64,000 nucleotides of DNA, taken from NCBI GenBank assembly GCA_013239625.1, contig MU053559.1, positions 2,586,324 to 2,650,323 of the forward strand. The letters are read 5' to 3'. Source of the DNA: Lama guanicoe. Its lineage: Eukaryota. Under the pieces are notes generated by a model. It saw only the letters and a program-made list of their open reading frames with translations, was not told the DNA's origin and did not search any database. This document shows positions 10,778 to 59,472 of the stretch, piece after piece (the stretch's first letter is position 1; each line of letters begins with the position of its first letter). A program made the position numbers and the translations under genes.

Positions 10778-12165
10778 AACTTATTTACAAACCAGAGACA
10801 GACTCACAGACATAGGAAAAAAACCTGATGGTTATCAGAGGGGAAAAGAGGGTGGAGGGATAAACTGGGAGTTTGGGATTTGCAGATACAAACTACTATA
10901 TATAAAATAGATAAACAGCAAGGTTCTACGTAGAGCACAGGGAATTATATTCAATATCTTGTAGTAACCTATAATGAAAAAGAATATGAAAAGAAATATA
11001 TGTATGTATATGTATGACTGAAACATGATGCTGTACACCAGAAATTGATACAACCTTGCAAACTGACTATACTTCAGTAAAAAATAATAAATTTTTTTCC
11101 AGTTTTATTAGGTAGAATTATTACAGTTCAACTACACAGACACATTATATTGCATGTAAATACATATATACAGTATACTGCACATTTTTTAGTTTATGTA
11201 TATGTACTGATTATTGTTTCTAAGAACAGATTAGATCTTTAGCTTTTTAAACTTACATCGTTATCAAAGGAATAAAGCCAACTACTAAATAAGAATCAAC
11301 AGAATGCAATAATACAATCATAAAGGACAGTCAAATGTGCTTACACATATTCAAGAAATCAAAATAATAATCAGTTCATTTGTGTCTTTATTATTATTGT
11401 TATTACTTTTTAGATTCTTCATATAAATGATGTCATATGGCATTTTTCTTTCTCTTTCTGGCCCACTTCACTTTGAATGACAGTCTTCAGGTCTATCTAT
11501 ATTGCTGCAAATGGCATTATTTTATTCTTTTTTATGGCTGAGTAGTATTCCATTGTATAAATATACCACATCTTCTTTACCCAGTCACCTGTTGATAGAC
11601 ATTTAGGTTGTTTCCATGTCTTGGCTATCGTACATAGTGCTGCTATGAACATTGGGGTGCATGTGTCTTTTTGAATTTTATTTTTCTCTGGATATATGCC
11701 CAGGAGTGGGATTGCTGGATCACGTGGTAAGTCTATTTTCAGTTTTTTAAGGAACCTCCATACTGTCCTCCATAGTGGCTGCACCAAACTACATTCCTAC
11801 CAACAGTGTAGGAGGGTTCCCTTTTCTCCACACCCTCTCCAGCATCTACCATTTGTAAACTTTTCAATGATGGCCATTCTGGCTGGTATGTATACGTATG
11901 ACTGAAACACGATGCTGTACACCAGAAACTGACACTTTGTAACTGACTATACTTCAATAAAAAATAATTTTTAAAATTTAAAAAACAAAAAATAGATAAA
12001 CAACAAGGTCCTACTGTATAGCAGAAGGAATTATACGCAATACCTTGTAATAGCCTCTAATGAAAAGGAATATATATATAAAATGTATAACCGAATCACT
12101 ATGCTGTACACCAGAAATTAACACAACATTGTAAACCAACTATACTTCAATTTAAAAAAAAAAAC
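10778..12165 (+). mobile_element. Nest of LINE-1 3' UTR fragments enclosing a minus-strand L1
   Basis: Canonical 3' UTR blocks (gactcacagacatag, aaggtcctactgtatagca, tatacttcaa-poly(A)) repeated around 11092-11886. Confidence 0.85.
11092..11886 (-). mobile_element. 5'-truncated LINE-1 with atypical 3' tail (copy A)
   Basis: ORF 11497-11787 is the L1 ORF2 C-terminus ([15 protein letters not shown]...); 11100-11362 differs from other L1 3' UTRs here and is homologous to 58339-58592. Confidence 0.88.
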
Positions 12166-13039
12166 TTGGAGGAAACATTGCATACTAGTCCCCTAGTCCC
12201 TTCTCTTGGAATTTCTTAGACCATTTTGACATTTCAAGAGCTCTAAAAAGCCCTGCAGTTAAATACAACAGCAGCAAAAACCACATTTGTGCAACCATAG
12301 AAGTCTTTATTCTTGTAAAACCTATGAGCATTCTTGCAGACCTTTTTCACAGAGCACACTTCAAGAAACACCGAGGCTCCTCCACATGTATCTTCCCACT
12401 CAGCAGCTCAGTTCTTGACGCTGAGTCAGTCTGGAAGACACGACTCTCAGAAGAACAAGGTGGCCCCAGGCCCATTTGAGCCTGGTGTTGACAGCAGCCA
12501 CGGGGGCAGAGGAGTCAAGTCCTCCCTTTGGTGTAGGGGGTGTTCACTAGACTGAGCCCAGAGCCCTGGGTTTAAGTCTAGGTCAAGAACTTCAGAAGAA
12601 GCCCAGAGTCCTAAAATTATTAAATATCCTACCTATGTATACTATAATTCAAAATAAACCCAACTCAAATTGTAAAAACAGATCTAAGGAAGTATAACAG
12701 AATTCTGAGTGGTTCCCTTAATAACAACTTCAACATTTGAAATCTCAAATTCTTGCCAAAAAATTAATACTCCGGCTCTGCCAGTGCTCTAAACACTAGT
12801 ATCCCCTTGCATTCCTATCCCAGGATCTGCTCATCAACTGACTTCTCTTGGCCCCAGTTAAAGTGGCACGGGATTGCTAAAATGACTTCCAGCTCTGAAG
12901 TTCTGTGATTCCTCCTGCTGTATTAACCCCTGACACTGCAAGATGAAAGGCTTTCCTGAAGTAATCCCCTCCGTGCCTACGGTCGGTCGTACACACTGTT
13001 GACTTCTCACCTTGGTGGAAACTGTGGATGCCCAGCCCA

Positions 13040-13618
13040 CCTGCCCTTGGCACTTCTCTCCTTCCCATCCTAACTGGTGGCTTCCAACCTCAGACACTGC
13101 AACACTTAGCCTGAGACCTTCCTCCAACTACTGACAGCCTATGTGGGGCAGGCTGGAACTACCATGGAGTTAATACCCGCTAGAGCAGCCCTCAACCAAT
13201 GGCGGATGAGAGTTGGTCTGGAAATATCCCAGCTCCCTGCTCCTCAATCAGAATAACGCTGAGGTGTACGCTCTCCACTATCTCCCAGAATTCCCCAGCA
13301 GGACTGAACCCTGGTTGTCCACAGTGGTAGCTGGCTTGGCAATGTACTCTTCTGGCTTCTTTCACTTCCCAGATCTTTCTTTTTTCTTTTATGGAGGTTC
13401 TGGGAATTGAACCCAGGACCTCATGCATGCTAAGCATGTGCTCAACCACTGAGCTCTACCCTCCCACCTTTTTTTTTTCTTTTCGGTTCTTTTTTTTTTC
13501 TCTAAATGTATTTCCCTATCTTAGCTCTCTCCTCCCCTATCAGTGTTTCCTGAGGTCACCTCTCAATCCTCAGATCCTCGTTTCAAAGTTTGTTCCTAGG
13601 GCACCCAAACCAAGACAC
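13040..13618 (+). mobile_element. ERVL LTR (LTR16-like) interrupted by a SINE
   Basis: gcagccctcaaccaatgg...cccagaattccccagcaggactgaaccc...cccaaaccaagaca. Confidence 0.55.
13378..13468 (-). mobile_element. Vic-1-like SINE
   Basis: ttgaacccaggacctcatgcatgctaagcatgtgctcaaccactgagctctaccctccc. Confidence 0.9.
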
Positions 13619-13629
13619 TAGCCAGCATT

Positions 13630-14105
13630 CATTTCCCCTACTTCTTTCCTTCCTAACCACACCTTGTTTGGGATTAGCTGCCCACTCTGCAAAAAAAAAA
13701 AAATGTTCTCCCACATGGTAATCTCAGTCCTCTTCACAGTGATGGGGTAGGATTTGATCCAGTTCTAGCCAATGAGATCTGAAGGGAGAATTCTGGGAAA
13801 CAGCTCCTTGCTCCAGGAAAAAGAGAGGTGTCTCCTAGTCTTCTGCTGGAAGTTGACATGTATGAATGTGATGCCCCAAACTACAAAACCTTATGAGCAA
13901 GGGAGCCAACCTGGTCGGAAAACGGACACACCTAACATGTAAAGTGGAGAGATGATAAGATCCTATCTCCTCAATGACATATTTGAGCTGCTGGAGCCCG
14001 CTTAATCTCCGGACTTCTCACATAGATAATGTATTTTGTAGTATTTGGGCAAATATTAGTAGCAATATTCTGTTACTTCCAGTTAAAGATACTCTATCTG
14101 ATATA
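13630..14105 (+). mobile_element. Old MaLR LTR (MLT1J/K/L-like)
   Basis: ccagttctagccaatgagatctgaagg...tttgagctgctgga...ctgttacttccag. Confidence 0.5.
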
Positions 14106-14447
14106 CCTTCCCAAGGATTTCAAGAATGAAAATAAAATGTTTGTTTTGAAACTTTGCAGCTTGAGAAATCAAATCCTGTATAATTGTTTTAACCCTGTGT
14201 CATTTTTAACAGCTGTCTTAATAATCAGGACTGGTTCAATAAATTATGACCCATACTATACACCCATGAAAAATCTACCTTTAGGAAAAATGTTTCATGA
14301 CACAGAAATTTCAGTGTATTTTTAAGTTAAAAAGCAAGTTAGGTATAAATGCATTGAAAAAAAAATGTTCAAGTTCATACCTATAACTGTTAACATTTAC
14401 TTTAATTTTTTCCATCTACCAAGTTTTCTATTAAGAAGATGTGTTGC

Positions 14448-14615
14448 TTTTTTTTAATTGACGTATAGTCAGTTTACAATGTGTCCATTTCTGGTGTACA
14501 GCGTAATGCTTCAGTCATACATGTACATACATATATTCATTTTCATGTTCTTTTTCATTATAGGTTATGACAAGATATTGAATATAGTTCCCTGCGCTAT
14601 ACAGAAGGAAGTTGT
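14448..14615 (-). mobile_element. Short LINE-1 3' end
   Basis: Poly(T), attgacgtatagtcagtttacaatg, ttcctgcgctatacag; degenerate TSD gaagRtgtRttgYttttt. Confidence 0.8.
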
Positions 14616-15524
14616 TGAAGGTGTATTGTTTTATACTTGAAAAAAAAAAGGGACACAATTTTTGAAAAAGTAACCCAAGCTCTTCAAGTGTTCCTTCTCT
14701 TTCCTCCCTCTCTGGGAAAGAACCAAGTGTCCACCATCAAAGGACAAACCTAGAGGCAGAAGGTGGCCTGGATTCTACAGCAACCTAAGTTTCAAAAGGT
14801 CAGCTTTATGAGCTGTTCAGGGCAGAGTTGTCATGGAAGCCACAACCATGTCTCTTCCTACTTAAAGGTTATGGGCAACGTAGGAAGGCTTCCAACAGCC
14901 TGATGGGCGTGTCTAGGTTTGCGTTCCTGCCTGAGCCACGCATCACTGGGAATACTATAGATACAAACTGGTCTCCTGGTCTCAGGAGAGGTGGCAGGCT
15001 TTGAGGAACATCTTCTAAGAGCTAGTTTCCTGGAGAGGAAATAGCATTTTTATTTTTGTTCTTGTTTTTACCTTGTTTTGTTTTTGTCTTTGCAGGATGG
15101 AAGGGAAAACTTCAAAAGGGAAGCCAGGATAAGAAAGCAGAGAGAAATTAAAACCAGCCTCATGACAGTGATGGTGAATGGAGAAAAATAACACACGATG
15201 GAAGAAGGAAGAGAAACCGTATTAAGAAGCCCAATGGCAACCTCTCTTATGGTGAGTCCTGGACATCTGAAGTCGCTGACACTTCGTGACATCATACAGA
15301 TCTTCACAGGTGCCAGCAATTTGCATAGTAGTCCCCGATGGGTAGAGCAGAGAGGGCACAGGCTAGTCCCACGTGGCTGATTCTGAAGTTCACCGTGTTC
15401 CTTGGGTATGTTGTCAAAATGCGTGGAAAGCCTTCTGAGAACCCAGCGCCACTTCTGCACATCTGGGAAGGCAAGTTAGACTCCCTGAAACCACCAGTAC
15501 AAACTCAAACCACGTCTTGAGAGG

Positions 15525-15770
15525 TGCTGTGGTAGAGCAGATGGTGCGCTGTATTATGCTTCAGAGGAGCTGAGTTCAAGCCTCAGGTCTGGCATTTACT
15601 TCAGTTGGAGTGACTTCAGTTGTCCATTACGCATCTCTACACCTCAGTTTCTTCAGTTAGCTTTGAGTCTTCCTTCACAAGTTTCTTACAAGATTCTTAT
15701 GGACAATAAATGTGAAAGCACTTCATGAAACTACAGAGGTCTCCGCATTGTAAAGTATTACTAGTGATTT
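15525..15770 (+). mobile_element. MIR SINE
   Basis: gagctgagttcaagcctcagg...cctcagtttcttc...aatgtgaaagcact. Confidence 0.6.
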
Positions 15771-15804
15771 TGAAGTCCTGGTCAGGAAAATTAAAGACAG
15801 AAAC

Positions 15805-16520
15805 TAGGAACAAAACGAAAAGACAACCTACAGAATGGGGGAAAATATTTGCAAACAATGTGACTGACAAGGGCTTAATTTCCAAAGTATACAAACAGCT
15901 CATACAGCTTAATATCAAAAAAGCAACCCAATCAAAAAATGGGCCTAAGACCTACATAGACATTTCTCCAAAGAACACATACAGATGGCCAATAGGCACA
16001 TGAAAAGATGCTCAACGTCACTAATTAGCGGAGAAACTGATTTTTGACAAAGTCACAAAAGTACTTCAATGGAAGAAGGCTAGTCTTTTTCACAAATGAT
16101 GCTGGAGCGGTTGGACACCCTTCAAGAAAAATAAGAACTTTGACCTAATCATCTCCTATATAAAAATTAACTCAAAATGAATCATAGACGTCAATGTAAA
16201 ATTATGAAATTTTTCTAAGAAACCATAGGAGAAAATCTTTGGGACCAAGAGCTAGGTGAAGAGTCCTTATACTTAACACTAGAAGCATGGTCCATAGAAG
16301 GAAAAATTAACAAGCTGGCCTTAACCAAATTAAAAACTTTCACTCTGCAAAAGACCCTATTGAGATGGAGGACAAGTCACCACCTGGGAGAAAATATTTG
16401 CAAGCCACATAGCCAACACAGAAATAGAATCTAAAATTTATAAGGAATCCTCACAACTCCACAATAAAAAACAAACGCCACATTTCACCGAGGATACACA
16501 ATTAACTACTAAGTACATTT
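15805..16520 (+). mobile_element. Two adjacent LINE-1 ORF2 fragments
   Basis: [26 protein letters not shown] in ORF 15725-16003; a second, older ORF2 stretch from ~16036. Confidence 0.8.
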
Positions 16521-16722
16521 AACCATCAGAGACCTGCCCTTACCCTACTCTTCCCATGAATCTTAGCAAAACTCCCCAGCTCTTCAAAGGCCCTCCCCAG
16601 CCCCTACTTTTACCTCCGTTTCCCCCTCTCCCAACCCAAGCCTGCCTTCCCTGATTTGGTCCTCATAAGCTCTCACTACATATTCTTAAATTGGCACTTC
16701 CATCTGCTCCATGCTATGGACC

Positions 16723-17571
16723 TGTTAGCAGATGGAGGGACCCCTAAATTAGGAAGCCTACCAAAGTGTGGGTCCTTGCCACTGGCTGTGAAATAATTCG
16801 AGAAACGGAGGCAGAGGGATGAAATGAACAGCCACTTTATTTGCTCAGAAGGGAAAATGGAAGAAAAGCACTTGAGCAGAGAAAGGAGGTACTCAAGGAG
16901 GGAGCTGTCAGCCAAGATGGCCGGTAGAGACAGCTCCCATCTGGGTCAGGACATGTGGACTTTTATGGGAGGCTTCTGTCATCGCGTCCTCCTTCCGGGA
17001 GTGATGGAGCCAATCAGTCTTTGTACAGGCTTTGCTGGTGGTTGTCATGGCAATCGTCAACTGTCATGGTGCTGGTGCTAATATATTACAATGAGGCTCA
17101 AGGTCCACTGGAAGTCAAATCCTCCACCTTCTTGGGCGTTGGTTCTAACCAGTTCTTGTTTCTTCTCCTGGCAGCTGCCTCCTGGGACTTAGATAAGAGT
17201 AATTGGTTTCTATTTGAGGGAGGGGCAGGGGTATGATCCTGGGGGCAACAGCCTTGGTAAGAAAAAGAAAGTTTGCTTTCAATCAGAATGCCTGCAATCC
17301 GGTGGACTCAGCATCCCGCCCACCCTCCAAAAAAACCATCTCCAAACATTCTGTTCAGCCATGAAAGTTTTAAAAGGAAATGGGGGAGTAATCTCAGTTA
17401 ATCGTTGAGCTAGGTGGTCAGAGTCGTGGCCATCCCCTAGTGCCTGGAGGCCTATCCTAATCAACTGTCTGAGCCTGCTCTTCTGTGACTCAGGGAGGCC
17501 TGGGAGACGCCAGCTCCTCTATAAACAAGAGGCAGGGGGTGGGGATGCCCCCAAGGTCTTGCTTGGTATCA
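16723..17571 (-). mobile_element. ERV1-type LTR (possibly composite) upstream of DIPK2B
   Basis: TG...CA ends; flanks gacc / gatc (near-TSD); shares gtgtgggtccttg and the tccactggaagt...tccacc block with the LTR at 2041; minus-strand AATAAA near 16836. Confidence 0.65.
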
Positions 17572-17859
17572 GATCTTATCTTGGTGTCAGGAGGAAGGCA
17601 ACCCCGAGGCAGTGTATCTCCACCAAGTCAAGCCAGCCACTGACAAGTGTGGCAGGGTGGTAAAGAGGGACTTTGAGGCATGGGGGAGAGGGATGGACAC
17701 AGCTGGGTGCAGACAGAAGGATCTTTCCGGTGTGTTCTCATCGCACCAGAGGCCACCGGGACCTTTCCTCCCCTTTCTTCTCAGATCAGCGGAAGCAAAC
17801 TTGAGTTTTTCGACTCCCCAAGCAGTAAAAAGGCTTCACCTTTTAAATCAGTATCAAAT

Positions 17860-18434
17860 GTACCACTTAATGGCCAGCCAAGTGACTTCTAGTTATTTTA
17901 TGGCCAAATATGGCTGGTTAAGGGGTAGGCCAAGTTATCCACTGTGGGGAGGGGGAGGGGGAGGTGTGTGTGTATGACCCACAGGGACAGGTACACCCAT
18001 GATTAAAACAGTGGAAGGCGGAGGCCTTCAGGATTCTTTGAAACTCCCAGGTGGAAACCAGGTCAGACATACATCCTGCATGGACCTTTTCTGCCCAGCC
18101 AGGATATCCTGTGTTTGTCAAAAGGACAGCACAGGGAAGCCCTGGCCATTGTCCTCTCTGAAATCTGCCAGTCGGCCCCTCCCCAGCCTGCGGCAGCGGC
18201 CCCAGGGCAGAGGAAGAATAACTCTGGAAACTGTGTTATCAGCATCCTCCATGGACTTCCTCACCTCCTCCCCAGCCTCGGTAGCCCCGAGCTCCTCAGC
18301 ATCCTCCAACAGAAACCCGGGAAGCTGGGATGGGGTCAACGCCCTGAAGCCAGCCCTCTCTCTTTTGCCAAGACCTGCCTCTGTGCAGCCCTAAGTGGGC
18401 AGCCGAGGGCTGCAGCTGGAGTCCTGAGCCGGTG
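17860..18434 (+). promoter_or_regulatory. Putative DIPK2B proximal promoter / 5' UTR
   Basis: Apparently repeat-free DNA just upstream of the ATG; CACTTAA (NKE, 17864-17870), CArG CCAAATATGG (17904-17913), G-rich box near 17946-17963, ETS-like ACTTCCT near 18255; TSS not determinable. Confidence 0.5.
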
Positions 18435-18667
18435 ATGGAGCCCTGGCTGGGGCCTGAGGCTGCCGGCCTCCGCCTGGGCTGGCCGGCCCTGCTGTTGTGG
18501 GTCTCCAGCCTGAGCTATTCTGCCTCCTCGCCGGCTTCTCTCGCTCCTTCTCTGGTGCCCCGAGTCCGAATCAGCTACAATTTTGGAAGGACTTTCCTCG
18601 GTCTTGATAAATGTAATGCCTGCATCGGGACATCTATTTGCAAGAAGTTCTTTAAAGAAGAAATAAG
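18435..18667 (+). CDS. DIPK2B: DIPK2B coding exon 1 (signal peptide-like N-terminus, Cys-rich CNACIGTSICKKF motif)
   Basis: ATG at 18435 in strong Kozak context (gtgATGG); translation MEPWLGPEAAGLRLGWPALLLWVSSLS...FLGLDKCNACIGTSICKKFFKEEI(R) matches recalled CXorf36/DIA1R; donor AG|GTCAGA at 18668; 233 nt, phase 2. Confidence 0.96.
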
Positions 18668-18984
18668 GTCAGAATCTCAATCAGATAACTCTGAGGGGCA
18701 CAGTTCCGTTCCCTTCACGTGACAACGTCCAGGAGTTTCTGGAAAACAAGGCAGGTTGTAATTTATGGGTGGGAGGCCATTGAATCAGATAGTGGTAATG
18801 GGTTAAAGTTGGGGTGTGGGGGGTGGTAAGGTGTGAAGCCAAATTCCAGCTCTAAATGCTAAATCCAACGTTTCCTTTTGAAATGGGAGCTTAACTGTTT
18901 CTTCTTTATGACTGGAGTAGCCTGGGATGATTAAGTTTATCAAGTTCATTTCTCATAGTGGGAGGGAAATCAAGTTTATAGAAA

Positions 18985-19175
18985 GCTGGCTATGTGACAG
19001 GCATTTGAAAGCTATTTTGATTTTTCTCCCCACAACAATCCTGGGAGTTAGTGTTTTGCACCCATGATTCTGAGAGTGAACTGAGACACGGCAAGGTTCA
19101 ATGACTGGCCCCAGGTCACCACTTAATCAGTGGCAGATCTGGGGTGCAAACCCACGCGGTTTGCTCCAAAGCTTC
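18985..19175 (-). mobile_element. MIR SINE
   Basis: cacaacaatcctgggag...aactgagacacggcaaggttcaatgactggccccaggtcac. Confidence 0.7.
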
Positions 19176-20859
19176 TGCACCAGGTTTCTGTTGTGAGATG
19201 TTGCCTTGATCAGAGGAAATCCTAAGTTGAGGAAATCTCCATGCACGTGGCTCTCACCAAAAAAATGGTCCCACATTTTGGAACACATGGTCAATGAGCC
19301 TTTCCTACGGCCAAGACCCAGCACGTGCTGTAATGACATTGCTGTCACTCTGGTCACTGCCCTCCAGGGGCTCAGGGGTGGGGAACAGTGTGACAAATAA
19401 TAATAATAAAGCCTGATTCAATGCAGGCCGGGAGCGAAGTGTAAAGGACCTCAGGGAGCTCCAGGGAGAGGACGTTAATTCCAAATGGGGACTGGGAAAA
19501 GGCTTCTCCCTGGGGAGGGGTTCTGAGCAAGGCCTTGAAGGATGAGCTGAAATGTAGGGGGAGGAGAGGGGCTTAAGGTAGAAGGATCAGCTTAAGCAAA
19601 GGCCCAGAGGTGTGGGAAGAGTTGGGGAGTACTTGGTGGCTGGAATATGGGGCACATGTGGAGGCGTGGCCAAAGGAGGAGGCTGGAAGCGGCAGATGGG
19701 GCAGGGGGCCTTGAATGCCGTACCAAGGAATTGGGATCTTAATCTGGGGGCCTGTGGTTCCCAGTGTTTTCCATAGTAAAGACCATTTATAGTAGGCCCC
19801 TTCTCCTATGCTCTCCCCCAACGACCTGCCTCTGGCTTGTGAGATTTGGTGACCAAAGAAAATTAATTTACAATAATTTTGTTTCCAATCTGTATTAACC
19901 AAAGACACATTTGACTATTTAACTAAGTTACTAAACAGAAATAACAAATGGAAAAATACCAATAAAAATGCTGAACTTCTTTTGTGAGATGGTAGATAGT
20001 ATATGAAGTTGATGTGAACTTTTCCCATGAGACTATTTCTTAAGGTATTTTGAACGTTGAAAAGTTGAAAGATCTCCAACTGGGGAGGCTTTGTTGCAGG
20101 CAATGGTGAGGGTGTTAAGTAGAGTGGGGACCAAGATCTTACGGAAAGTCGTGTGAGAATGGCGTGGTGATGTTGGAAGGGGCTGCCAGACCAGGTCTCC
20201 TGGTCCAAGAGAAAGGTCTTTGGGAACAAAGCAGGGCAGGAAGGGTGCAAGTGGGTTCAGCTAGAGCATCATTTTGTGGACCAATTCAATTTTGGGAGAG
20301 GAAATAAAAATGGAGATGTTGAAAATGAACGCAAGATTGCCCACCTAAGAAACTGGGATGGAGAGGACCAAAAACACACATGAAGTGGGACTGATTCCTT
20401 GGGGGAAGAAGGCAGTGAAAATACGGACATATTTTAAGATAGGAGGGAGGGAAATCAAGGGATTTGACTGAGAAAGAGCTCCGAGTTCACATCCTCCTCC
20501 AGATAAGTAAACACGCGTATTCGAATCTTACAGTGGACTTTTTACCACGTGGAAATCAATGAGGTTTTTCTTTCCAGGCAAATATTGGCCAAATGCAGGA
20601 AGCATTCCCCCAAATAGGTTTGTGTTCCAGTCGAGTTCAGGATATTACTTCAGCTCCCTCAGAATTGATTTTCCATGTGCGCCTGCCTGAAAGGGAAGTG
20701 TCAGATACCAGCAGGAAAAGACCAGGCGGGGCAGGTGGGGGTTTGGAGTGCTTTATGCTGAGAAGTCACATCCTCAGGGCAAGGAAGCAGAGAGGGGCAG
20801 TGAGCAGGTCTGGGAACGTGGATTTGTTTATAGTTCTATTGTCTACACTGTAAATACCA

Positions 20860-21740
20860 TTTTCCTTATTTTAAAAGTGGTATCTCTTTATTTTCAAATT
20901 TTCAGGAAATATTGATTAAAGAAAACACAAAATAAAAATTCTTCACCTAAAGATCACTCCTTAGTGAACATGTTGGTGTATGATCCTTACCACCTTTTTT
21001 TCTAAGTGTCGATTAAAAATGTTTTCAACAAAAATATGATCATACTATGCATACTCCTTTGTAAACTTTTATGTAACAGTATATCGGGAAAACTTTTCCA
21101 CAGTACCTTTTTTGTTGTTGTTGTTGTTGTTTGGTTGGTTTATTGAGGAGATAATTAGGTTTATTTATTTTAATTTTTTAAATTTTTATTTGAACCCAGG
21201 ACCTCGTGCATGCTAAGTATGCACTCTACCACTGAGCTACACCCTCCCCGTTCACATTAACTATTCTTTGCCGCAGTTTGAGTTTTAGTGGTTTCGTGGT
21301 ATTCAATTGTATCAATCAATCAGAATTTATTTAACTAATCCACTCCTGTGAGACAGCTAGATTTTTTTTCACTTTTCATTATTATAAACAGAGCCATGTT
21401 GAACATCCCCGTGGCTAGACTTTTATGCACATCAGTGACTAATTCCTATAACAAATTCCTAAAAGTGAAATTTCCAGGGCAAAAAAATAATAGCAAATCT
21501 TTAGGATTGTGAGATATAGCCAAATGGAGACCTCTACCCATAGAACTTACTTTTTGCATACTCCGAAATGTTGAATATGACGGCCATGTTTACTTTGTCT
21601 TCCTTCTCAGTATGTCTGAGCTGAGCCCTTTTTTTCAGGCTTCTTGGCCATTTGTATTTCTTCTTTGTCTCTAAGTTCACATCCTTTGCCGCGCTTTCCA
21701 GTTGTGTGTTTGTTTGTCTTGTTCTTGTTCATCTCCAAAC
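20860..21740 (-). mobile_element. Old LINE-1 (L1M-type) 3' region
   Basis: atgatcatactatgcata, ttttcattattataaacagagccatgttgaacatcc, ttggccatttgtatttcttct. Confidence 0.6.
21108..21249 (-). mobile_element. Vic-1-like SINE (internal deletion)
   Basis: taattaggtttatt...tgaacccaggacctcgtgcatgctaagtatgcactctaccactgagctacaccctcccc. Confidence 0.88.
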
Positions 21741-25300: not shown

Positions 25301-25328
25301 ATCTAAGAAAGCCCCCTAGTTGTAAATC

Positions 25329-48319: not shown

Positions 48320-48493
48320 GGTCTGCCCAGCCCTTTCTTGCGCTGCCCATCGCAGCGACTCCTGGACCGTGTGGTCCGGCGCTATGCCGAGGTGGCCGAC
48401 GCCGGCAGCATCTTTATGGACCACTTCACAGACCGCGACAAGCTGCGTCTGCTCTACACGCTCTCTGTCAACGCGCATCCCATCCTCCTGCAG
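48320..48493 (+). CDS. DIPK2B: DIPK2B coding exon 3
   Basis: Pyrimidine tract + ctgcag|; GLPSPFLRCPSQRLLDRVVRRYAE...LLYTLSVNAHPILLQ; donor CAG|GTACGG; 174 nt, phase 0/0. Confidence 0.96.
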
Positions 48494-49104
48494 GTACGGG
48501 GAGGGGGTTCACGTCGGACTTCAAGGGGGCGGGCCCTGGATTGAGCCCTCTCTCCTTTCACTGTACACCTTGGGGCCACCAGCCCACGTTAGTACCTTTG
48601 TGGCATTCAGTAAATATGTGTTGGCTTCCGCAGTGGGAGAAGGCTGTGGTTGCTGTAGAGGAAAGAGGTGTCGGAGCTGGGGAGCCGGGTCCGCAGAGAA
48701 TGGCCACTTTTGCTGCCAGAGGCAGCCCTGCCCAAAAGGGCTTTGACCTGTGTGCCTCAAAGATCAGTAAGATTTGAGCAAGCTCAGGAGGTGAGGAAAT
48801 AACCAAAGAATGGCCCACCCGGAGATGTGCTCTGCAGCTGTGCTTAGAAAGAAGAAAAAAATGGAAGTAACCTAAAAGTCCATCAATAAGGTAACGGTCA
48901 AATCAGCAAGGATGCACTGAAACTTGAGGATACACTAGTCAGCAAGACAGGCATAGTGGCCCCTGCCTTCATGCACCTTTGCATCAGTCAGTAGAGACAG
49001 CCGCTTAATAAGTCGGCCAGCATCCATAGAACACCCGGAGTCTAATCACACTGGTTTCCCCAGGTCCCAATATTCAGGACACTATATAATGGGCACAAAG
49101 GAAA

Positions 49105-49500
49105 CTGGGAAGTGGGAGGGAGGAGCAGAAAAAGGAGGAGGGAGGAAGAGAAAGGAGAGGAGGAGAAGGAGGAGGAAGATGAATAAGAGGAAGAGAGAGA
49201 GGAGAGAAAGGGGAAAGAGGAAAACAGAAGAGAAGAGAGAGAAGGTGCAGGTAGAGGAAGGGGAAGAAACCATATGATGGCACTTAATAATTATTATTAA
49301 CTATATTATAATTATTTATAATATAGTAATGATTATACTTTATATCATAATTATTTATAATGTATTATATTTACAATGTATTATAATTACTTATATGTAT
49401 TATAATGATTTATAATGTATTATAGTATTATAATGATTTATAATGTATTATAATTATTTATAATATATTATTATATTTTTTAATTTATGATATACTGATT
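49105..49500. repeat. GA-rich low-complexity tract followed by an AT-rich (taatgtatta-like) minisatellite
   Basis: Direct reading. Confidence 0.85.
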
Positions 49501-49504
49501 GTAT

Positions 49505-49745
49505 AACAAGTCATTTACTGAGCACCTGCTATGTGCCAAGCATTGTGTTAAATGTTTTACATCATGATCTCATTTAATGCTTACAACAACTCGACAACCT
49601 CAGAGGAATATTATTATTGTCCCCTTTTCCAGATGAGGTAAGTGGCGCTCAGAGATGTGAAGTGACTTGGCCACAGTCCCTTAGCCAGTTATCAGCGATG
49701 GAACCTAAACCCAGAGCTGTCTGACCCAAGGTCCACATGCTCTTT
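49505..49745 (-). mobile_element. MIR SINE
   Basis: catttactgagcacctgctatgtgccaagcattgtg...ccccttttccagatgagg...gaagtgacttggccacagtc. Confidence 0.8.
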
Positions 49746-50602
49746 CTGCTAAAACCTGCCCAGTAATGCGGGCATTTTAAATCCTAGAGGAGAAGGAATC
49801 GCTGGTTATCCTGCACCCTCAGAGGTCTTCTTCTCCCACTGTCCTAGCCTTGGTGGCCAAGGCAGGTGACCTGGCTACTTCTAGCCCTGGCTCCTGAGAG
49901 GCCTGGTTTGGGACCCTCCATCCACCCTAAACTCTGCCCAAAAAGGGCATGGCTTGCATCTGCCACCAGCCCAGGGAGGACTCGTAGCTGCATTTAGACG
50001 TCACCAGGGGGGCCAGGGGCCTCCCTGCACAGCACACAGTGGGAGCAGTTCCAGTGGGCAGGGGAAGCAAGAAAGCTTCTTTCCCAACATGGCGAGTGGG
50101 CTAAAATGGCACAAAGCCAGAGAACAATGATCAGAAAGGGGGATGACTTTGTTTTTTTAAGAAGGAAAATAAAAAAAAAAAGTGCCAAGTATTTATAATT
50201 CCTGTCACTTCTCCCATAGTTTAAAGAAATGCCATTCTAGGTACAGCTGCCTCGCTATTTGACTATTTTAGTCAAAAAAAAAAAAAAAAGACCAGCCAGG
50301 ACTCCCTCTTCTCTTTTTCGTCTCACAAATCCACACGTTTGGAGCTCTTACAAGGAGACAGGAGACTGGTTGGGGCTGTGTGCTTCCCTAGGCCCGTGTT
50401 AGGCTATTGGAACATTCCAGTCAGCGGGGGAGCACCTGTGAGTATGTAGTTAGCCCGGCCAGGCAGATCCATCCCGGGCCAGTGCAGTGGTCCCCGAAAC
50501 TTCAGTCCCCCAAGGGCCACCGTCATGATTTTTGCCTTCTCCCAGAACCTAATGCCTGCACTTTTATTTTTGAAAGTCTTTTTCTTTAAATCAGCACTGA
50601 GA

Positions 50603-50762
50603 GGGGAGGGTATAGCTCAGTGGTAGAACACGTGCTTAGCACGCACAAGGTCCTGGGTTCAGCCCCCAGTACCTCCATTAAAAAGTAAATAAGTAAATAA
50701 ACCTCATTACCTCTCCCCCCCTACAAAAAAGAGAAAATCATATAGTTATATAAATAAATCAA
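50603..50762 (+). mobile_element. Vic-1-like SINE
   Basis: ggggagggtatagctcagtggtagaacacgtgcttagc...cctgggttcagcccccagtacctccatta. Confidence 0.9.
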
Positions 50763-51278
50763 TCAATTAGCCTGAAGTTGACCTTCTTTTTTTTGCCCCC
50801 ATAACCTCTTCCTAAGCAGTGATATTTGCAAAATCTGAAATGCTGGTCTTATTTTTTTCAACCTATGCAACTCTTAAAATAAACACATTCCCTGAATCCT
50901 GAATACTTTCCGAAGTCACGGAAAGTGCTACATCGGCATTCTCTTACCTGGCTTGGGGCAACTCTGTTGAAATGTGACCCGCTGTATGGAAAGAAGAGCT
51001 TCCTTTTCCGAATCCCTCCATCAGCAATGGGATGAACAAGTTGTGGTTGGCCGGCGGGGCAGGAGAGGATGCGGGGAGCAGAGTGTTGCCGCATTCCAAG
51101 AGGTGTGAACAAGGTTAAAGGATGCTTTGCTGATGTGTCTTGACACGGAGGGTACCTGTGTAAGGCTGATCTTTCTGTCTGCGCGTGGTGAGAGGCAGAG
51201 AGAGAGAGGGTGCGGAGGGGGCTGTCTTCAGTTCTTTTCTCTCTGATCTTCTACTGCCTCCTCCTCTCGGCTTGGCAG

Positions 51279-51567
51279 ATCTTCCCAGGCGCTGAGGGAT
51301 GGCCGCTGCCCAAGTACGTGGGCTCCTGTGGCCGGTTACTGGTCAGCACCAGCACCAGTCCGCTGCAGGAATTCTATGGTGCGCCCCCAGACCAGGCGGC
51401 CGACCTGGCTTACCAGGTCCTGGGTGTCCTGGAGTCTCTGAGGAGCAACGATTTGAACTACTTCTTCTACTTCACCCGCGTTGATGCGGCCATGTTTGGT
51501 ATCTTCAACAACGGACATCTGTTCATCCGGGATGCCAGTGCACTGGGCGTCATCGACAGGCAGGAAG
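51279..51567 (+). CDS. DIPK2B: DIPK2B coding exon 4 (core of kinase-like domain)
   Basis: Acceptor tggcag|ATC; IFPGAEGWPLPKYVGSCGR...FIRDASALGVIDRQE(G); donor AAG|GTACCC at 51568; 289 nt, phase 1. Confidence 0.96.
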
Positions 51568-52704
51568 GTACCCAGCATGGATTCTGGCTAAGCAGCTGCC
51601 GGAAGGGAACAGGAGCTGGGGAGGGGTGACAAGGGGGTGGCCCCACTGGGCCTCACCAGTCTCCATGTGTCACAGTGAGAGCAGCTCAAGTTCGAGGAAG
51701 AGGGGGGGTCCCTCTCCCTCTTTGGAGTCTCTGCTCCAGCTCCAAAGGGGAACTGGACTTGATCTTGTCCATGGGGTAGGGGGAGATTTGCATCATGGTG
51801 GCCCCAACTGCACCCTCCAAGGGCACTGCTGTTGTCCAGTTGGGTCTGGGTGGCATGGGGTCCTGGCCTGCCCTCCTCACACATGTACATCCCCAGATCC
51901 GTCTCCCCCTTCCCAGCCTTTCTCATCAGATGCTTTTAGACTTTATCTGAACTATCTGGCTGTTTCACTGGTTAATTTCACAACCCATTTTGACACCTTT
52001 GCTTTTTATAAAGGTTTCAAATTGAAAAGCATGGCACCGAATGAGGTGTATGAATGAATCGTGTTGCTCGTGATGTGCACAGATGCATCCAGGGTCCTAG
52101 AACCCTTCAAACATCCCAGTCTCTAATGGTGACCAGATTTTTCTTAGCCTGAGAATGGGACAGAGGATTTTTCACCTCCAATTTCTGATTTTGTTTACAT
52201 GAGAAGGCCTCCAAAGATAGACCAATTAAACCACACTTACTCATGATCTGATTTGCCTTTACTAAGAAGGCTCAAATTAGAAGGAATGAGGTTGATTCCA
52301 GAATATCTGGGACCATTGAATATCAGTTGAATGCATATTCTGGATTCCCTGTTCTTTCTGTGGACTTTGTATTTAACAAGGGCAAATGCAACTGGCCCTA
52401 GGAATTTCCTGAGTTCCCTAATTCAGTATAATCACACTATGCGTGTGAGCCCTACAATTAGAAGCCCAATTTCTGGGAGGGATAAGTGTGTTTTCCGTGC
52501 CGGGCCTCATCTTACTGTAGCAGTGAGAGCTCCCCACAGGCTCTCAACAGGGGGCCATTGTGTCCCTGAGCCCTGCATCTCCTGCTGACAGGAGATGCTA
52601 AGAGACTAAACCACTTTGCCCAGTAATTCTCATTAGCAGCACCCCACCCCCCTCCCAAGGAATACAGGTGGTAGGGTGTGTAAGAGCATCCATCTCTCTT
52701 CTAG

Positions 52705-53045
52705 GCAGCCAAGCAGCCACTAGGGCAGAAGAGAATAAAGACATCTTCAGCTGCCTGGTCTCTGGCTGCCAGGTGGAGCTGCCCTCCTGCGACACCGTCC
52801 CTGAGAAGCAGAGCCTGGTGCTGGTGTGCGGGCAGGTGCTGCCTCGGCTTCTCCAGGCCAAGTTCCCGTCCCCAGTGCAGGAGGAGATCGACGCTGCGCT
52901 CGCTCGGTGTGGGGAGGGCGCCCGCCCTGACTCGGAGGTCCTCGGGGCTGCCAGGCAGCTGAAGGACGTCCTGAGGCCCCTGAGAACCTGTGACCCCAGA
53001 TTCGCCTACCGCTACCCAGACTGCAAGTATGATGACAAGTTCTGA
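52705..53045 (+). CDS. DIPK2B: DIPK2B coding exon 5 (terminal)
   Basis: Acceptor ctcttctag|GC completes Gly; SQAATRAEENKDIFSCLVSGC...RTCDPRFAYRYPDCKYDDKF then TGA at 53043-53045; 341 nt; total spliced CDS 233+265+174+289+341 = 1302 nt (433 aa). Confidence 0.96.
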
Positions 53046-54799
53046 GGGGCTGGAGCCCTGCTCGCCTCTGGGGACCACGTCCTTGGCCTTCCATCACCCG
53101 GTTGACTGGCTGGACTGCAAGGATGAAAGCCGTAGCAGCCGCTTAGACATCGGCAGACATGCGCATCCGTTTCCCAGGGGCGGAAGAACAGGCCAATGAC
53201 TGGGGAGGGCGGCTGCATGACACGGGGTGGTGTGATCACCCCCACAGGCCAGGACATCATGGAAGAACCCAGGGGTGGGCATCAGAAGGCCTTGGGGGTG
53301 CATCCTCACTCGGCCTCTTTGAGCCCCAGTTTTCTCTCTTCTCCACCAGACTCTGGAGTTAGTGAAAGAAGACAGAGGTATGAAGGGCCAGGGACATGTG
53401 CTCCCTCCCCCCAGCCCACGTGGTTGCAAAGAATGTTCCAGAAGCATGCACATGCAGGGCAAAGGAGACAGAGCCATAAAGGTGAAAAGGCTGGCATGGA
53501 GGGAGGACGATGGGAAGGTGAGGCCCCAGGCCAGCAGCACCTCAGACCTGGACAAGAGGAGCCCCCTCCCTGCTCCCTGTGCCCCCAGGCTCAGCCCTTC
53601 TGTCACGCTCCCCACACTGCCACGGTGAGGAGTGAGGAGACTGCAGGCCAAGGGGACGTGTGGACAGGACCACACCCTGGGTGCCCGGGACCCTAGAGAG
53701 GCACTTCGTGGTGTGAGAAGGAGCCAGGGGTGAGAAGAGAAGAGGGGTGGGCTGGGTGGGCTGGGGGTCCCATGTGTCTGTCCAGGTCCTCTGAGAACCA
53801 GCTGTCAAGCCGGGACTGATGGCATTAAGGAAGATGCCTGTTTGGAAGGGAAGGAGGAGGGAGCCAGAGCCAGCTGGGCCAGCCATCAAGCCACGCTGCA
53901 GGCAATCGAAGGAAGGCTCGGCAAGGCTGTCAGGGGGTCCTCGGGGCAAAGCCAGCCATCAGAGTGGCCACCCAGGAAGGGATGGCCCTTCTGTCCCTGC
54001 TGCAGGGAACTGCGTGGCCTCAGCCCAACCGCAAGGACAGATTTCAAACCTCAGCACGGGATGCTCAGCCAGTTCTGCTCCCCAGAGTCTGAGGTCTGTG
54101 AGTAGGACATTGTGATCGCAGCCACAGCCGGGGACCAGGGCCAGCTCTCTCCCCACCACAGCCTCCAGTGTAGGACACTACAAGTCTGAGAATATTCATT
54201 CAAACTTCGCCTTACAGGTCGTTCTAAAAATGTGTTTTCCAGGTCAGCCAACAAAACATCTTTTATGCAATACGTGGTGTGTGGGTCCTCCATGTATACC
54301 CTTGCCCGGGCCCCTCAAACACTAGTGGGGGTTCCTGGGACCTTTGCCCGGCCTCCCTGTCCGTCCTCTACCCGCTGGGACCTGTCAGTTGGCCTCCTTT
54401 TTTCTACCTCTGAATCATCAATTTTAAGGTCCGGATGCCTGGCTTCGTAAGCCTCATGCTGCAGACGGGGAAACTGAGGCCCATGGAGAAAGAATGACTT
54501 GCTGAGATAGTTTCAGAACTCCTGCTGCCAGTCCAGGCTCCTCTTGCCTCCCCCTTCAGCCTTTGTCCTGTCCAATCCTGGTCCCTTCGGTCACATTTAA
54601 AAACGAGCAAAGAATAGTCTAATTTTGTGGTGCGCTACGTTGCCTTTGGGGCTTCCCTTCGGATTGCTCTAGGCCAACTACTTCCGGGGCAACTGTGAAA
54701 GTGAGGATGACAGGCCAAGCTTCCGGAAGGGCAGGCTTGGGCTGTCTCAGTGTCTCTGAGACAGTTGCCTACCGGTGTGGTCTGGAGACAAGGATTGAT

Positions 54800-54944
54800 C
54801 ACCCTTTCCAACACCTTGCTTTTAGTCCAGTGAAACTGATCTTAGACTTCTGGCCTTCAGAACTCTGGGAAAATAAATTCCTCTTGTTTGAAGCCTCTCA
54901 GTTTGGAGTAATTTGTTGTAGCAGCCACAGGAAACAAACGCATA
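54800..54944 (+). mobile_element. MaLR LTR 3' fragment (MLT1D-like) in the putative 3' UTR
   Basis: ccaacaccttg...agacttctggccttcagaact...aataaattcctcttgttt...aatttgttgtagcagccacaggaaac. Confidence 0.75.
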
Positions 54945-55413
54945 CCCCGAACTCCATCTTAGTGTCTGCTTCCAGAGAACCCCACTTGCAATGCTCCCCT
55001 ACTTCAGTCTAATGTGACGGATTCCAACGCCAGACCTGCCAGCAGGGAGTGTGTTATGCAGCTAAACCCGGGGTGAGGCTTGGATGGTTCTGTTCCTCCA
55101 CTTATTAAGCCTCGGGCATCATTTAAGACCCTGAGTCCTGCCTTGACCCAAAACGTTTCCTGACAGCCCGGCCCCCAGCGAGCCCTTTCTGAATCCCACG
55201 TCTGTACCCCTGAGCCCCAGGCCTATGCCCATTTGAGGCTAATCCCAAGGGTATTCCAGAGACTCTGTGCAGTGCCTTCCTATCCAGCTCTTTTTGTTCC
55301 CCGCAGCAGCCAGCACAGGGCTGGGCACAGAGCAGGTGCTTGGAAAACGTTCTTGCTGAGAATAACGACTGTGTTCTTCAGTCCTTTTTGTTTGGTGTTT
55401 TTCATGCACCACA

Positions 55414-55777
55414 TGCTCTAGACTGAACACTTGTGTCCCTTCCAAATGCGTAAGTTGAAATCCTCATCCCCAATGTGATGGTATTTGGAGGTGGGAACTT
55501 TGGGAGGTAACTAGGTCATGACGATGGAGCCCTTGTGAATAGAGTTAGTGCCCTTATAAAAGAAATCCCAGAGAACTCCCTCACTCCTGCCACCATGTGA
55601 GGACACAGCAAGAAGGTCCTAGCTAGGGACCAAGAAACTTGCTCTCAGCAAACACCAGATCTGCCAGTGCTGTGATCTCGGACTTCCCAGCCACCAGAAC
55701 TATGAGAAATAAATGTTTGTTGCTTCTAAGCTACCCCGTCAACGGTATTCTTACAGCAGCCCGAATGGACAAAGACA
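55414..55777 (+). mobile_element. Complete MaLR solo LTR (MLT1A-like) in the putative 3' UTR
   Basis: TG...CA ends; gttgaaatcctcatccccaatgtgatggtatttggaggtggg...gacttcccagccaccagaactatgagaaataaatg; flanks ccaca / ccatg. Confidence 0.85.
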
Positions 55778-55970
55778 CCATGCTGGCCATGTACAGGACA
55801 CAGCCACGTCCTGGAGCCCAGCTCTTTCCCCTCAGTAGCCAGGAGACAAGTAAATTGACACCCAAGAGACTTCAGCCAGAACACAATCCTTGTAGTATAT
55901 TCTCAGTCCCCTGGACTCTGATTGGAAGGGTTATTTTTCTGAGTTTTGCCAGCCACTGTCTTTTCGCCTA

Positions 55971-56116
55971 CAGGACTGGCTACATGATTTGCAGGGCCCA
56001 GTGCAAAATGAAACAGTGGGGCCTCCTGGCATCGAGACTTGCAACATGGGGCCCAGCAGAGCATTAAACTAAGGGCAGGCAACTGTCTAGGTTACATGCC
56101 TGAGAAGCCAGCCCTG
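55971..56116 (+). mobile_element. MER45-like hAT-Tip100 element
   Basis: caggactggct...tttgcagggcccagtgcaaaatgaaa...gaagccagccctg terminal inverted repeats. Confidence 0.65.
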
Positions 56117-56455
56117 GGTGCCCGAGAATCCTGATTCACCTCTGCGGAGACGGTACTTGGGGTTTACCGGGAACTCACCTGACTTTCATAACCAAGGGCA
56201 GTAACCGTGGGGCCAGAGATGATATATAAAATATTTAATAACTGCCATCTGACATAGGAGAACACACTCCAATGCCTGCAGTGAGCCCTGAGGTCGAGTC
56301 CTGCTTTTCAAATGGGGAACCTGGTGCAAGCAATTTGCTGAAATCAACAATTTTGGTTGATTTTTAGGTCTCCTGCTTTCCCAGCCCTCCTCGTAGCATC
56401 TGATTTCTGCCTACCAGTGACTGCAGAAGCCTGAACGCTTCTTCTACAGAGTTAA

Positions 56456-56461
56456 AATAAA
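56456..56461 (+). terminator. Candidate distal polyadenylation signal of DIPK2B
   Basis: AATAAA in non-repeat-looking DNA ~3.4 kb after the stop, followed by T/GT-rich sequence (tcctttgttggatttgtgttcatttt). Confidence 0.5.
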
Positions 56462-56494
56462 TCCTTTGTTGGATTTGTGTTCATTTTGGAAAGA

Positions 56495-56695
56495 TCTAGA
56501 AGCCTGGAATCAGACAGGCCCAGTTTCAAATCATGACTTGGCTGGTTACTGTGTAACCTCGGGCAAGTTGCTTAACCTCTCTGAGTCTCCCTTTCCTCCA
56601 TCTATAAAGTGATGAGAAAAAGATTTACCCTGGCAGGGTTATTGGCCTGTTTAAATAATACATTGTCTTTTAAGAGCTTGGCACATCTGGGCATT
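56495..56695 (+). mobile_element. MIR SINE
   Basis: ctgtgtaacctcgggcaagttgcttaacctctctgagtctccctttcctccatctataaagtg. Confidence 0.8.
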
Positions 56696-58327
56696 CTATA
56701 TTTGAAAGTGAATGCAAGGAAAGAGCAGAGGGTTTCCCGGCAGGAAGGTCTGCTGACACAGCCAAGGCGATTGCTGCAGCCTCTCGGGAGGGACCCTGAT
56801 CCTCGCCCCTAGGCTCTGCTCCAGCCCAGAGGAACCACCAGATTGCCAGACGGTCTGACTGGGGCCATTTTTCTTCCCGCTCACCATCCAGACTCTGGGT
56901 TGATTGTCAATGACAGCTGGGCAGCCAGTACACTTGCCTCTCCAGCCTGGCCCTCCACCAGGCTTTGAAGGGGATCCTTCTCAAGCAGGTAACGTTGGGA
57001 GCCCTGGGAAGTCCACCCGTGCTCAGCGTCCAACAGATCCAAGTATCCAGCTTGGCCGGTGGAAAGCTCCTGACTCACATGCGATGTGGCTTTTCTGCCC
57101 ACGTCAGGCCTGTTGCCCGCATATAATGGCACAGCTGAGCCCACGTGCACACACGTCTCCTCTGCTCTGCCCACAGCTCTTTGTGTCATTACTGAAAAAT
57201 GATTGCGGCCGCAGGCTGCATGGAAGAGTCAACACCCAGGCGAGGGGCCCCAAATTTGCAGATATAATGACCCTTCAAGAAGGCAACTTGGAGGAATAGG
57301 CTGGCAAAGAAGGACTAAGTGGCCCGCCCATTGGCACGTTTCAGGTCCTGTGCCAAGTCCATCTTACCAAAGTCAGTGCTTCACAGTTATTGATTGCAGC
57401 ATTGTCAGTCATTGCTGATGCTGGAAACAACCTAAATGCCCGTACACCGGAGAGTGGTCGAATAAGCTGCAGTACATCCACACTGTGGAGTGCTGTGCAG
57501 CTCTACAAATGAATAAGGAAGATCTCTAGGAACTGGTATGGAATGATTTGTAAGATATACTGTGAAGTGAGGGCAAAAAAGCAAAGCACACAAGGGTATT
57601 TATAGGATGCTACCTTTCATGGAAGAAAGGCGATATAAGAGAATATTTATGGATCTGCTCACCTATGATGCAAAATATAGACATATAGACATAAAGTCAT
57701 ATAGACATAAAGAATAAACCAGAAGCTAATGAGATTGGTTACCTACAGGGGATGGGTGTCAGTGGGGTGGAAAAAGGGAGGAATGGGAGTGGAGTAGTAG
57801 GGATGAGGAGGGGGTAGAACTTTTCTGAGTATATTTTTTTGGTATAACTCTGGCTCTTAGAACCGTGGGAATTTCCCCCATAACGCACAAGTAAATAATT
57901 AAGATCAACCAGGATGTGGCTTGAACTCAAATGAAATATAAACAATAACAAATGGACCCAACTGTGTTACAAATGAACAAAATAAGTACATCAAGGAACA
58001 GACCTCAGTGACTTGGAAAGGAAGCATTTTGACTACATAGTATAAGACTAAAAACAAAAAGAACTGTACCCACACTTTGAAACGGTTAATTTTATATTGT
58101 GTGGGTTTCACCTCAATTTCAAAAGAGAGAGGAAAAAAGAACCACATACAAAGATTGTGCTCTAGTTAATATTTCTCCCAGGAGGATCTGGGTTAGCAAT
58201 TCTGAAACTACTTTAGATTTTGAGCAAGTAAGTAAATGTATTGTGGATAATGACAGATAGGCTTCTCATTGTTGGAGAAAGGAGTTACAAGGAAGGAAAG
58301 AGGGAATTTTGTGTCACCTCTAATTTT

Positions 58328-59472
58328 TTTTCCTTTTTCAGTTTTATTAGGTAGAATTATTACAGTTCAACTGCAGATATACATTATATTGCAGGTAAAC
58401 ACATATATACATTTTTTTTTAGTTTACATATATGTACTGATCATTGTTTCTAAGAACAAATTAGAGCTTTTGCTTTTTAAACTTACATAGTTATCAAAGA
58501 AATAAAGCAAAGCACAAAATAAGAATCAACGGAATGCGGTAATCCAATCATAAAGGACAGTCAAATGTGCTTACACATATTCAAGAAATCAATCATCTAA
58601 GTTATAAATAAGTAGTTCATTTGTGTCCTTTTTTTTTTTTTAGATTCCACATATGACTGATATCACATGCCATTTTTCTTTCTCTTTCTGGCTTACTTCA
58701 CTTAGAATGACATCCTCCAGGAGCATCCACGTTGCTGCAAATGGCATTATGTTGTCGTTTTTATGGCTGAATAGTATTCCATTGTGCATATACACCGTAT
58801 CTTCTTTATCCAGTCATCTATTGATGGACATTTGGGTTGTTTCATGTCTTGGCTATTGTAAATAGTGCTGCTATGAACATTGGGGTGCATGTATCTTTTT
58901 GAATTAGAGTCCCCTCTGGATATATGCCCAGGAATGGGATTGCTGGATCATATGGTAAGTCTCTTTTCAATTTTTTAAGGAATCTCCATACTGTTTTCCA
59001 TAATGGCTGCACCAAGCTACATTCCCACCAACAGTTTAGAAAGGTTCCCTTTTCTCCACACCCTCTCCAGCATCTATCATTTGCAGATTTTTTAACGATG
59101 GCCATTCTGGTTGATGTGAGGTGATACCTCATTCTAGTTTTGATCTGCATTTCTTTGACAATTAGCAGTGCTGAGCATTTTTTTCATGTGCCTATTGGCC
59201 ATTTGTATGTCTTCATTGGAGAATTGCTTGTTTAGGTCTTCTGCGCATTTTTGGATTGGGTTGCTTGTTTTTTTGATATTAAGGTGTATGAGCTGTTTGT
59301 ATATTTTGGAAATTAGTCCCTTGTTGGTCACATCATTTGCAAATATTTTCTCCCATTCTGTAGGTTGTCTTTTCGTTTTGTTTATGGTGTGCAAAGGCTT
59401 TTAAGTTTAACTAGATCCCATTTGTTTATTTTTGCTTTATTTCCATCACTCCAGGTGCTGGTTCAAAAAATA
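58328..59472 (-). mobile_element. 5'-truncated LINE-1 with atypical 3' tail (copy B)
   Basis: ORFs 58842-59150 and 59134-59394 are the L1 ORF2 C-terminus; 17-bp TSD gtgtcacctcYaatttt at 58311-58327 and 59473-59489. Confidence 0.92.

Follow-up and report, generated by a model that had tools for sequence, protein, structure and literature searches.

Two L1 copies in a 64,000-nt stretch of Lama guanicoe DNA (assembly GCA_013239625.1, contig MU053559.1, positions 2,586,324 to 2,650,323; hereafter the window) end in the same foreign 3' tail. Our analysis indicates that they probably belong to a real, minor and long-dead side lineage of L1, here called F1, which carried a swapped tail in place of its distal 3' untranslated region (UTR) and which, at a stage that we call C1, gave rise to a second, HAL1-like family, F2. 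An earlier note, made from the letters of the window, had proposed that a source L1 exchanged its distal 3' UTR once and then amplified. The dispersal of the copies, their single junction zone, the A-rich 3' end present in 66 of 67 F1 loci and the grouping of their open reading frame 2 (ORF2) ends all bear this out. What that note overlooked is that the 3' part of the tail is also present in F2.

The tails of the two copies, A (11100-11362) and B (58339-58592), share 231 identities over 254 aligned columns with 9 gap positions. Their local alignment score is 369, compared with 22.1 +/- 3.0 and a maximum of 37 for 200 dinucleotide shuffles, and their homology thus stands as first described. A self-BLAST of the window returned a single 802-nt match at 84% (11095-11885 against 58334-59113), which is made up of the ORF2 end plus the tail and stops where the flanks begin. 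Both tails do terminate 5'-truncated minus-strand L1 copies. Copy B (58328-59472) lies between copies of a target-site duplication (TSD) at 59473-59489 and 58311-58327; the 17-bp duplication that had been reported is therefore present, with a match of 16/17 and not a perfect one. Copy A (about 11092-11885) sits inside the A-rich end of a usual-tail L1 (10778-11094). No short TSD was found at its flanks, and a direct repeat of about 87 nt with 86% identity lies on either side of it, possibly an unusually long TSD or a second short usual-tail insertion. As the earlier note had stated, the tails are unrelated to the usual L1 3' ends of the window: when both were compared with five such ends on both strands, no homology was seen in 20 comparisons, of which the best was reached by 1/100 shuffles and the rest by 5-98/100. 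The features are as follows.

7010-7310, plus strand: usual-tail L1 3' UTR with its G-rich tract, used as comparison sequence
11002-11088, plus strand: 3' end of the usual-tail L1 (10778-11094), first copy of the ~87-nt repeat
11092-11099, minus strand: short A-rich end of copy A
11100-11362, minus strand: foreign tail of copy A, of the A-type (youngest) subfamily, ending in AATAAA plus ACTG
11363-11372, minus strand: junction zone of copy A, short form, 14 nt fewer than B-type
11373-11885, minus strand: L1 body of copy A, ORF2 C-terminus and proximal 3' UTR, 5'-truncated at 11885
11886-11968, plus strand: second copy of the ~87-nt repeat at copy A
58311-58327, minus strand: 3' TSD of copy B, a 16/17 match to the 5' TSD copy
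58328-58338, minus strand: terminal AAAAAGG plus A-run of copy B
58339-58601, minus strand: foreign tail of copy B, older B-type, the unambiguous foreign part running from CTTAG at 58601
58602-58613, minus strand: junction zone of copy B, AT-rich, like the usual TATTTACAA with small duplications
58614-59472, minus strand: L1 body of copy B, ORF2 C-terminus and proximal 3' UTR, 5'-truncated
59473-59489, minus strand: 5' TSD of copy B

To count the family, we searched a genome of 2.05 Gb. DNA searches with the F1 tail gave 2,353-2,846 first-look candidates, of which the best 40 were scored per search; pattern counts allowed up to 2 mismatches, and control patterns gave 0. A motif from the 5' half of the tail had 819 matches genome-wide and one from its 3' end 1,207, compared with 15,332 for the usual-junction motif, a count that pools several subfamilies of differing age. 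The 5'-half motif was detected in 65/67 best-scoring loci and in 10/13 older loci, and from these rates together with the 819 matches we estimate that roughly 850-1,100 F1 copies reach the 5' half of the tail. A first estimate of 1,500-2,600 copies was dropped when the 3' end proved common to F2. Counting copies, as had been suggested, thus reveals a dispersed family of about 1,000 in the genome; the expectation of a large family, drawn from two copies in 64 kb, does not hold, and at 819 against 15,332 motif matches F1 is a minor lineage. At about 1,100 copies, 0.034 would be expected per window and some 18 two-copy windows would arise genome-wide by chance, so that finding two in one window amounts to chance clustering.

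A local or segmental duplication, or mere chance similarity, has next to no probability as an explanation of the shared tail. The distance between the two copies is 47 kb, and the surrounding contig (C1178:2527128-2742066) holds four 3'-end matches in 215 kb, where the genome averages about one per 1.7 Mb. Against this, A and B belong to separate subfamilies, have separate flanks, and are two among hundreds of dispersed copies, and B has its own TSD, which refutes a duplication and agrees with the earlier note on this point.

The junction was read in 67 distinct loci out of 80 fetched. At least 40 nt of adjacent L1 body was present in 52 of them and the anchor only in 7; the remaining 8 scored as having none, of which 5 had a degraded anchor by eye and 3 were truncated within the junction zone. 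The median shared upstream length was 269 nt, as variable 5' truncation would leave, and TSD-like repeats flanked 35/67 loci compared with 17/67 in a swapped-flank control. At the break, the usual UTR reads GAACT-TATTTACAA-AACAG and the old new-tail form reads GAACT-ACT-TAT-TATTTATAA-CTTAG. On comparison of these forms, the break therefore falls somewhere within a 10-15 nt AT-rich zone after GAACT. The claim of a common junction survives in that one zone serves all 67 loci; it fails in detail, as A and B differ there, B having the longer, older form and A being 14 nt shorter. This difference divides the loci into an A-type without those 14 nt (29 copies) and a B-type with them (38 copies). Splicing was ruled out as the source of the join, for the usual UTR has no GT (splice donor) at the break.

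A still older type, C, surfaced during the searches for a donor. In the 3' half of the tail, the mean distance of copies to their own consensus is 4.9% for A, 5.0% for B and 8.3% for C (n=9), values biased low by the choice of best-scoring matches for fetching, and the three consensuses lie 3.6% apart per step. With a mammalian substitution rate near 2.2e-9 per site per year, these distances suggest an age of roughly 20-35 million years for F1. We saw no recent F1 activity, because no two of 50 copies are less than 2.9% apart. This fits with the available text of PMC3183009, which lists no very young families for alpaca; the age estimate is also older than the camelid split, quoted at 16.3 million years in the accessible part of PMC6726744.

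To place F1 among L1 lineages, we built a midpoint-rooted tree of 41 ORF2 ends (428 columns; 32 new-tail and 9 usual-tail rows). All 32 new-tail rows, together with one usual-tail row (L103), fall on one side of a branch with 96/90 support. Within this group the new-tail rows branch off stepwise, C and old B first and then A, which is nested deepest. A protein search, in which the best 150 hits were scored and 12 inspected, separated into two tiers. Hits of the upper tier (78-82% identity) had the new tail in 4/4 cases inspected, whereas those with long open frames (480-897 aa, 68-75%) had the usual tail in 8/8, one of them stopping short of the G-rich tract. It thus seems that the main lineage retained the usual tail and outlasted F1. 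The longest open frame among the 150 scored hits was 897 aa. The main-lineage copies with long open frames (L108-L113, L118 and L119) have in common an altered proximal UTR, and a strong G-rich tract is present in 7/8 of them.

The group-majority ORF2 ends of F1 are open, over 135 codons in A and 138 in the old group, and the old and young groups differ by 7 silent and 8 replacement changes, which hints at purifying selection on the ORF2 end. These data bear on the possibility that F1 was never autonomous and was a fixed chimeric RNA copied in trans by the proteins of the main lineage. Such a reading would account for the three long copies that we extended, none of them intact and one rearranged; it fits poorly with a majority ORF2 end open throughout the series, with more silent change than neutral drift would leave (on small numbers), and with copies that reach up to about 3 kb into ORF2. 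We regard it as unlikely. One of the three extended copies is 5'-truncated, one is 5'-inverted, and one reaches the 5' UTR and ORF1 as a rearranged double module without TSD. In L097, which lies upstream of L023, a pair of related 5' UTR-ORF1 modules (80-82% alike) stands in tandem; the second takes the place of a short early-ORF2 stretch and fuses mid-ORF1 to ORF2.

The tail itself has a GC content of 27% and no GGG run. Its maximum is 6-7 G per 25 nt, compared with 13-17 in 4/5 usual tails, the fifth being truncated, and the new tail thus lacks the G-rich tract of usual-tail L1. The text available for PMC4407331 locates potential quadruplex sequences in L1 3' UTRs, and that of PMC5135761 states that the mammalian L1 3' end needs poly(A) only and that the function of the polypurine tract is unknown; on the latter account the swap of tails is tolerable in principle. 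Predicted folding of the tail was not significant (z = -1.03 for B and +0.90 for A, with differing structures), and the F1 tail lacks the conserved 3' stem-loop characteristic of stringent-type long interspersed elements (LINEs). An Rfam scan of the tail gave two sub-threshold matches only, and its longest stop-free stretch is 40 aa. An AATAAA lies about 10-20 nt ahead of the A-run and TGTA motifs number 8 against 2.1 expected, a count reached by 0/1000 mononucleotide shuffles; in both features the tail resembles host poly(A) sites. The oldest copies (L094, L120 and L121) have about 10 extra bases in common beyond the usual end point, which suggests that the donor sequence had another cleavage site farther along and fits either route of capture discussed below. 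At another locus (L089:247-328) the insert consists of just the tail's 5' ~82 nt, followed by an A-run and with a TSD on both sides; this insert stops about where F2's portion of the tail starts. Part of the tail was also present in 19/24 listed sequencing runs, an observation that we did not use as evidence.

F2 came to light from two loci of the downstream-exclusion donor search that had common upstream sequence unlike the F1 body. When a 282-nt chimeric F2 query was used, 40/40 best scored hits covered nearly the whole of it, at 89-93% when the self hit is set aside, and an F2 motif had 789 matches genome-wide (control 0), so that F2 numbers at least 789 copies. The 3' flanks differed in the 2/2 copies compared, and F2 was not detected in the window. 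As pieced together from its copies (L123, L124 and L125-L129), F2 starts, in the part that was read, with the ORF1 C-terminus and about 60 nt of inter-ORF sequence. These are followed in 3' direction by about 300 nt of antisense ORF2, a linker of about 55 nt, an antisense ORF2 end of about 170 nt and, finally, the 3'-most ~185 nt of the tail. The ORF1 C-terminus was seen in L127, the sole copy fetched far enough, and the sense inter-ORF stretch in 3/5 copies (L127, L128 and L129), L125 and L126 being truncated at or after it. The antisense pieces are 72-79% identical to the known L1 bodies of our set and 80-87% among F2 copies, and were therefore derived from an older L1 copy. Of the three consensuses, C is the closest to the F2 tails (2 copies), at 6-7%; the distance rises to 9-10% for B and 12-13% for A. 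The simplest reading of this arrangement is that F2 would be an F1-derived, ORF1-only element, and it probably represents an independent HAL1 origin with traceable parts.

The reverse order, in which the tail originated with F2 or the source locus of F2 and was then passed to L1, could draw on the similar numbers of the two families (789 and 819 motif matches) and on the old type of the F2 tail. We consider it very unlikely: the tail's 5' ~85 nt are missing from F2, and F1 includes a C0 tail, older than the C1 tail of F2, on an ancestral-looking body (L096), although only 2 F2 tails were compared.

What we observed directly is the common junction, the dispersal of the copies and their numbers, the series of subfamilies, the absence of the G-rich tract and the structure of F2 from the ORF1 end onward. 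These observations fit the following history, which we hold to be likely. A single full-length usual-tail L1 would have shed the distal ~290 nt of its 3' UTR, and with them the G-rich tract, and acquired some 265 nt of unrelated, AT-rich sequence from the host that ends in an ordinary polyadenylation site, the two being joined at a short AT-rich match. The hybrid would have kept copying itself, since a mammalian L1 3' end needs just poly(A) (PMC5135761, in its available text). F1 would then have run as a minor second lineage beside the main one, passing from C0 to C1, B and A, and would have died out after leaving roughly 1,000 copies long enough to include the 5' half of the tail. From a C1-stage F1 the non-autonomous F2 would have arisen, with ORF2 replaced by antisense pieces of an older L1 and just the final ~185 nt of the tail retained. 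In this history, the autonomy of F1, the order of events, the extinction and the capture route are what we infer.

As for that route, we slightly favour, at about an even chance, a deletion that placed L1 next to a host poly(A) site from further downstream, in effect a fixed 3' transduction, because it needs common events only. In L1 3' transduction, the host sequence downstream of L1, as far as a host poly(A) site, is copied together with the element. F1 would be like such elements in having a host-derived piece that ends at a host poly(A) site; ordinary transduction differs in keeping L1's own UTR and A-tail ahead of the extra piece, both of which F1 lacks. At a single locus (L093:1-531) a usual L1 3' UTR is followed directly by the new tail, either through insertion into an A-rich end or as a relic of a transduction intermediate.

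A template switch would differ from this account in the capture route only: the tail would be the 3' end of a cellular mRNA, and reverse transcription started on its poly(A) would have switched to L1 RNA and run to the L1 5' end. The mRNA-like end of the tail (its base composition, the position of AATAAA and the TGTA excess) and the short AT-rich match to the usual UTR at the junction speak for it, and we hold it possible, at rather less than even chances. On the other side, no donor appeared among 95 upstream-exclusion or 40 downstream-exclusion matches, and the TGTA excess, judged against mononucleotide shuffles only, may just mirror the TA/TG-repeat character of the tail. The stronger proposal that L1 captured a still-identifiable host mRNA 3' end, traded its G-quadruplex tract for a strong poly(A) site, lasted for millions of years and spawned an undescribed HAL1 family, with an ORF2 that antisense L1 RNA overwrote in the course of reverse transcription, is in our judgment improbable as a whole. 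There is also a small chance that the tail stems from another, older mobile element (a 3' UTR or fragment) by recombination between repeats. Replacement of L1 UTRs by unrelated sequences is on record (PMC5753468, in the part available), and F2 shows the F1 lineage acquiring old L1 debris; nevertheless, the tail is unlike other repeats in the window, has no Rfam match near threshold, and at each full-tail locus inspected is L1-linked or part of a truncated copy.

Several points weigh against our overall account. No donor was found with the upstream-exclusion pattern in 95 matches, of which 16 were fetched (11 were truncated copies or variants of the family, and 5 matched by chance over 17-22 nt) and the rest judged from the matched letters, nor with the downstream-exclusion pattern in 40 matches, of which 5 were fetched (3 F1 copies and 2 F2); the power of these searches is put, as rough estimates, at 45% and 25-30%, respectively. 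Likewise, an old-type copy used as query gave no donor in the best 40 scored matches, 39 of which begin in the L1 part while 1 is a known truncated copy. Scans of metagenomes for a homologue of the tail in host DNA returned 0 and 0, with very low power, and count as no evidence. No intact full-length F1 element was found among the 3 long copies extended, out of 6 candidates. In the tree, one usual-tail row stands inside the new-tail group and the usual-tail rows are just 9. The hint of purifying selection comes from just 15 differences, the divergences from loci that were the best-scoring matches, and the minor standing of F1 from a usual-junction count that is pooled. Finally, the F2 ORF1 end was compared with the module that precedes the long F1 copy, with 88% identity, and this comparison did not include the main lineage.

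As kinds of event, L1 UTR replacement and independent HAL1 origins are known; these two families were not found described. According to the accessible text of PMC5753468, unrelated sequences have taken the place of both 5' and 3' UTRs of L1, and HAL1s have originated on several occasions; this text and that of PMC13756887 present HAL1 as non-autonomous, ORF1-only elements of several independent origins. Like the UTR-replaced mammalian families of PMC5753468, F1 combines a common ORF2 end with a non-homologous distal UTR and amplified onward as a series of subfamilies. Unlike them, its swap marks a minor side lineage that ran parallel to the main one, ended, and had lost the G-rich tract, and the event is recent (5-8%), so that the donor may still be recognisable. 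Like HAL1, F2 has an ORF1 end and a short stretch of inter-ORF sequence, beyond which lie non-coding sequence and an A-tail, and its dispersed copies number in the hundreds; it differs in that its 3' part is antisense debris of old L1 plus a borrowed tail, and in that it was read from the ORF1 end onward only. L1 lineages occasionally coexist, as in megabats, Peromyscus and early primates, with one or both later extinct (PMC4072516). F1 and the main lineage similarly represent two L1 lineages active in parallel, whereas those of PMC4072516 are not described, in the text available, as marked by a captured 3' end.

We found no description of F1 or F2 in the literature, and a consensus may exist in Repbase or Dfam, or in the supplements of PMC8605555. 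The Repbase alpaca L1 entries, for example L1-2_Vpa (cited in the accessible part of PMC6726744), come from the same animal group and are known here by name only; F1 may already be among them. The available text of three camelid repeat papers names no camelid HAL1.

Turnover of L1 3' UTRs is mostly known from old families with unrecognisable donors, and F1 is younger and has a sharp junction. It also represents a natural test of the G-rich tract, without which about 1,000 copies were made, yet the lineage that kept the tract is more numerous and apparently longer-lived. If an identifiable mRNA donor and an antisense-overwritten HAL1 proved true, the two families would be a dated, traceable case of the origin of an L1 3' end and of a HAL1. 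They are also relevant to repeat masking, in which the tail could be mistaken for a gene 3' UTR.

Some minor features were seen besides. A U6-like sequence, as we take it to be, is inserted within an old L1 ORF2 fragment in L081. In the window, an L1 3' end piece is present in three tandem copies of about 77 nt (5886-6116) within an older L1, which is also broken by a tRNA-like short interspersed element (SINE) at about 5348-5470.

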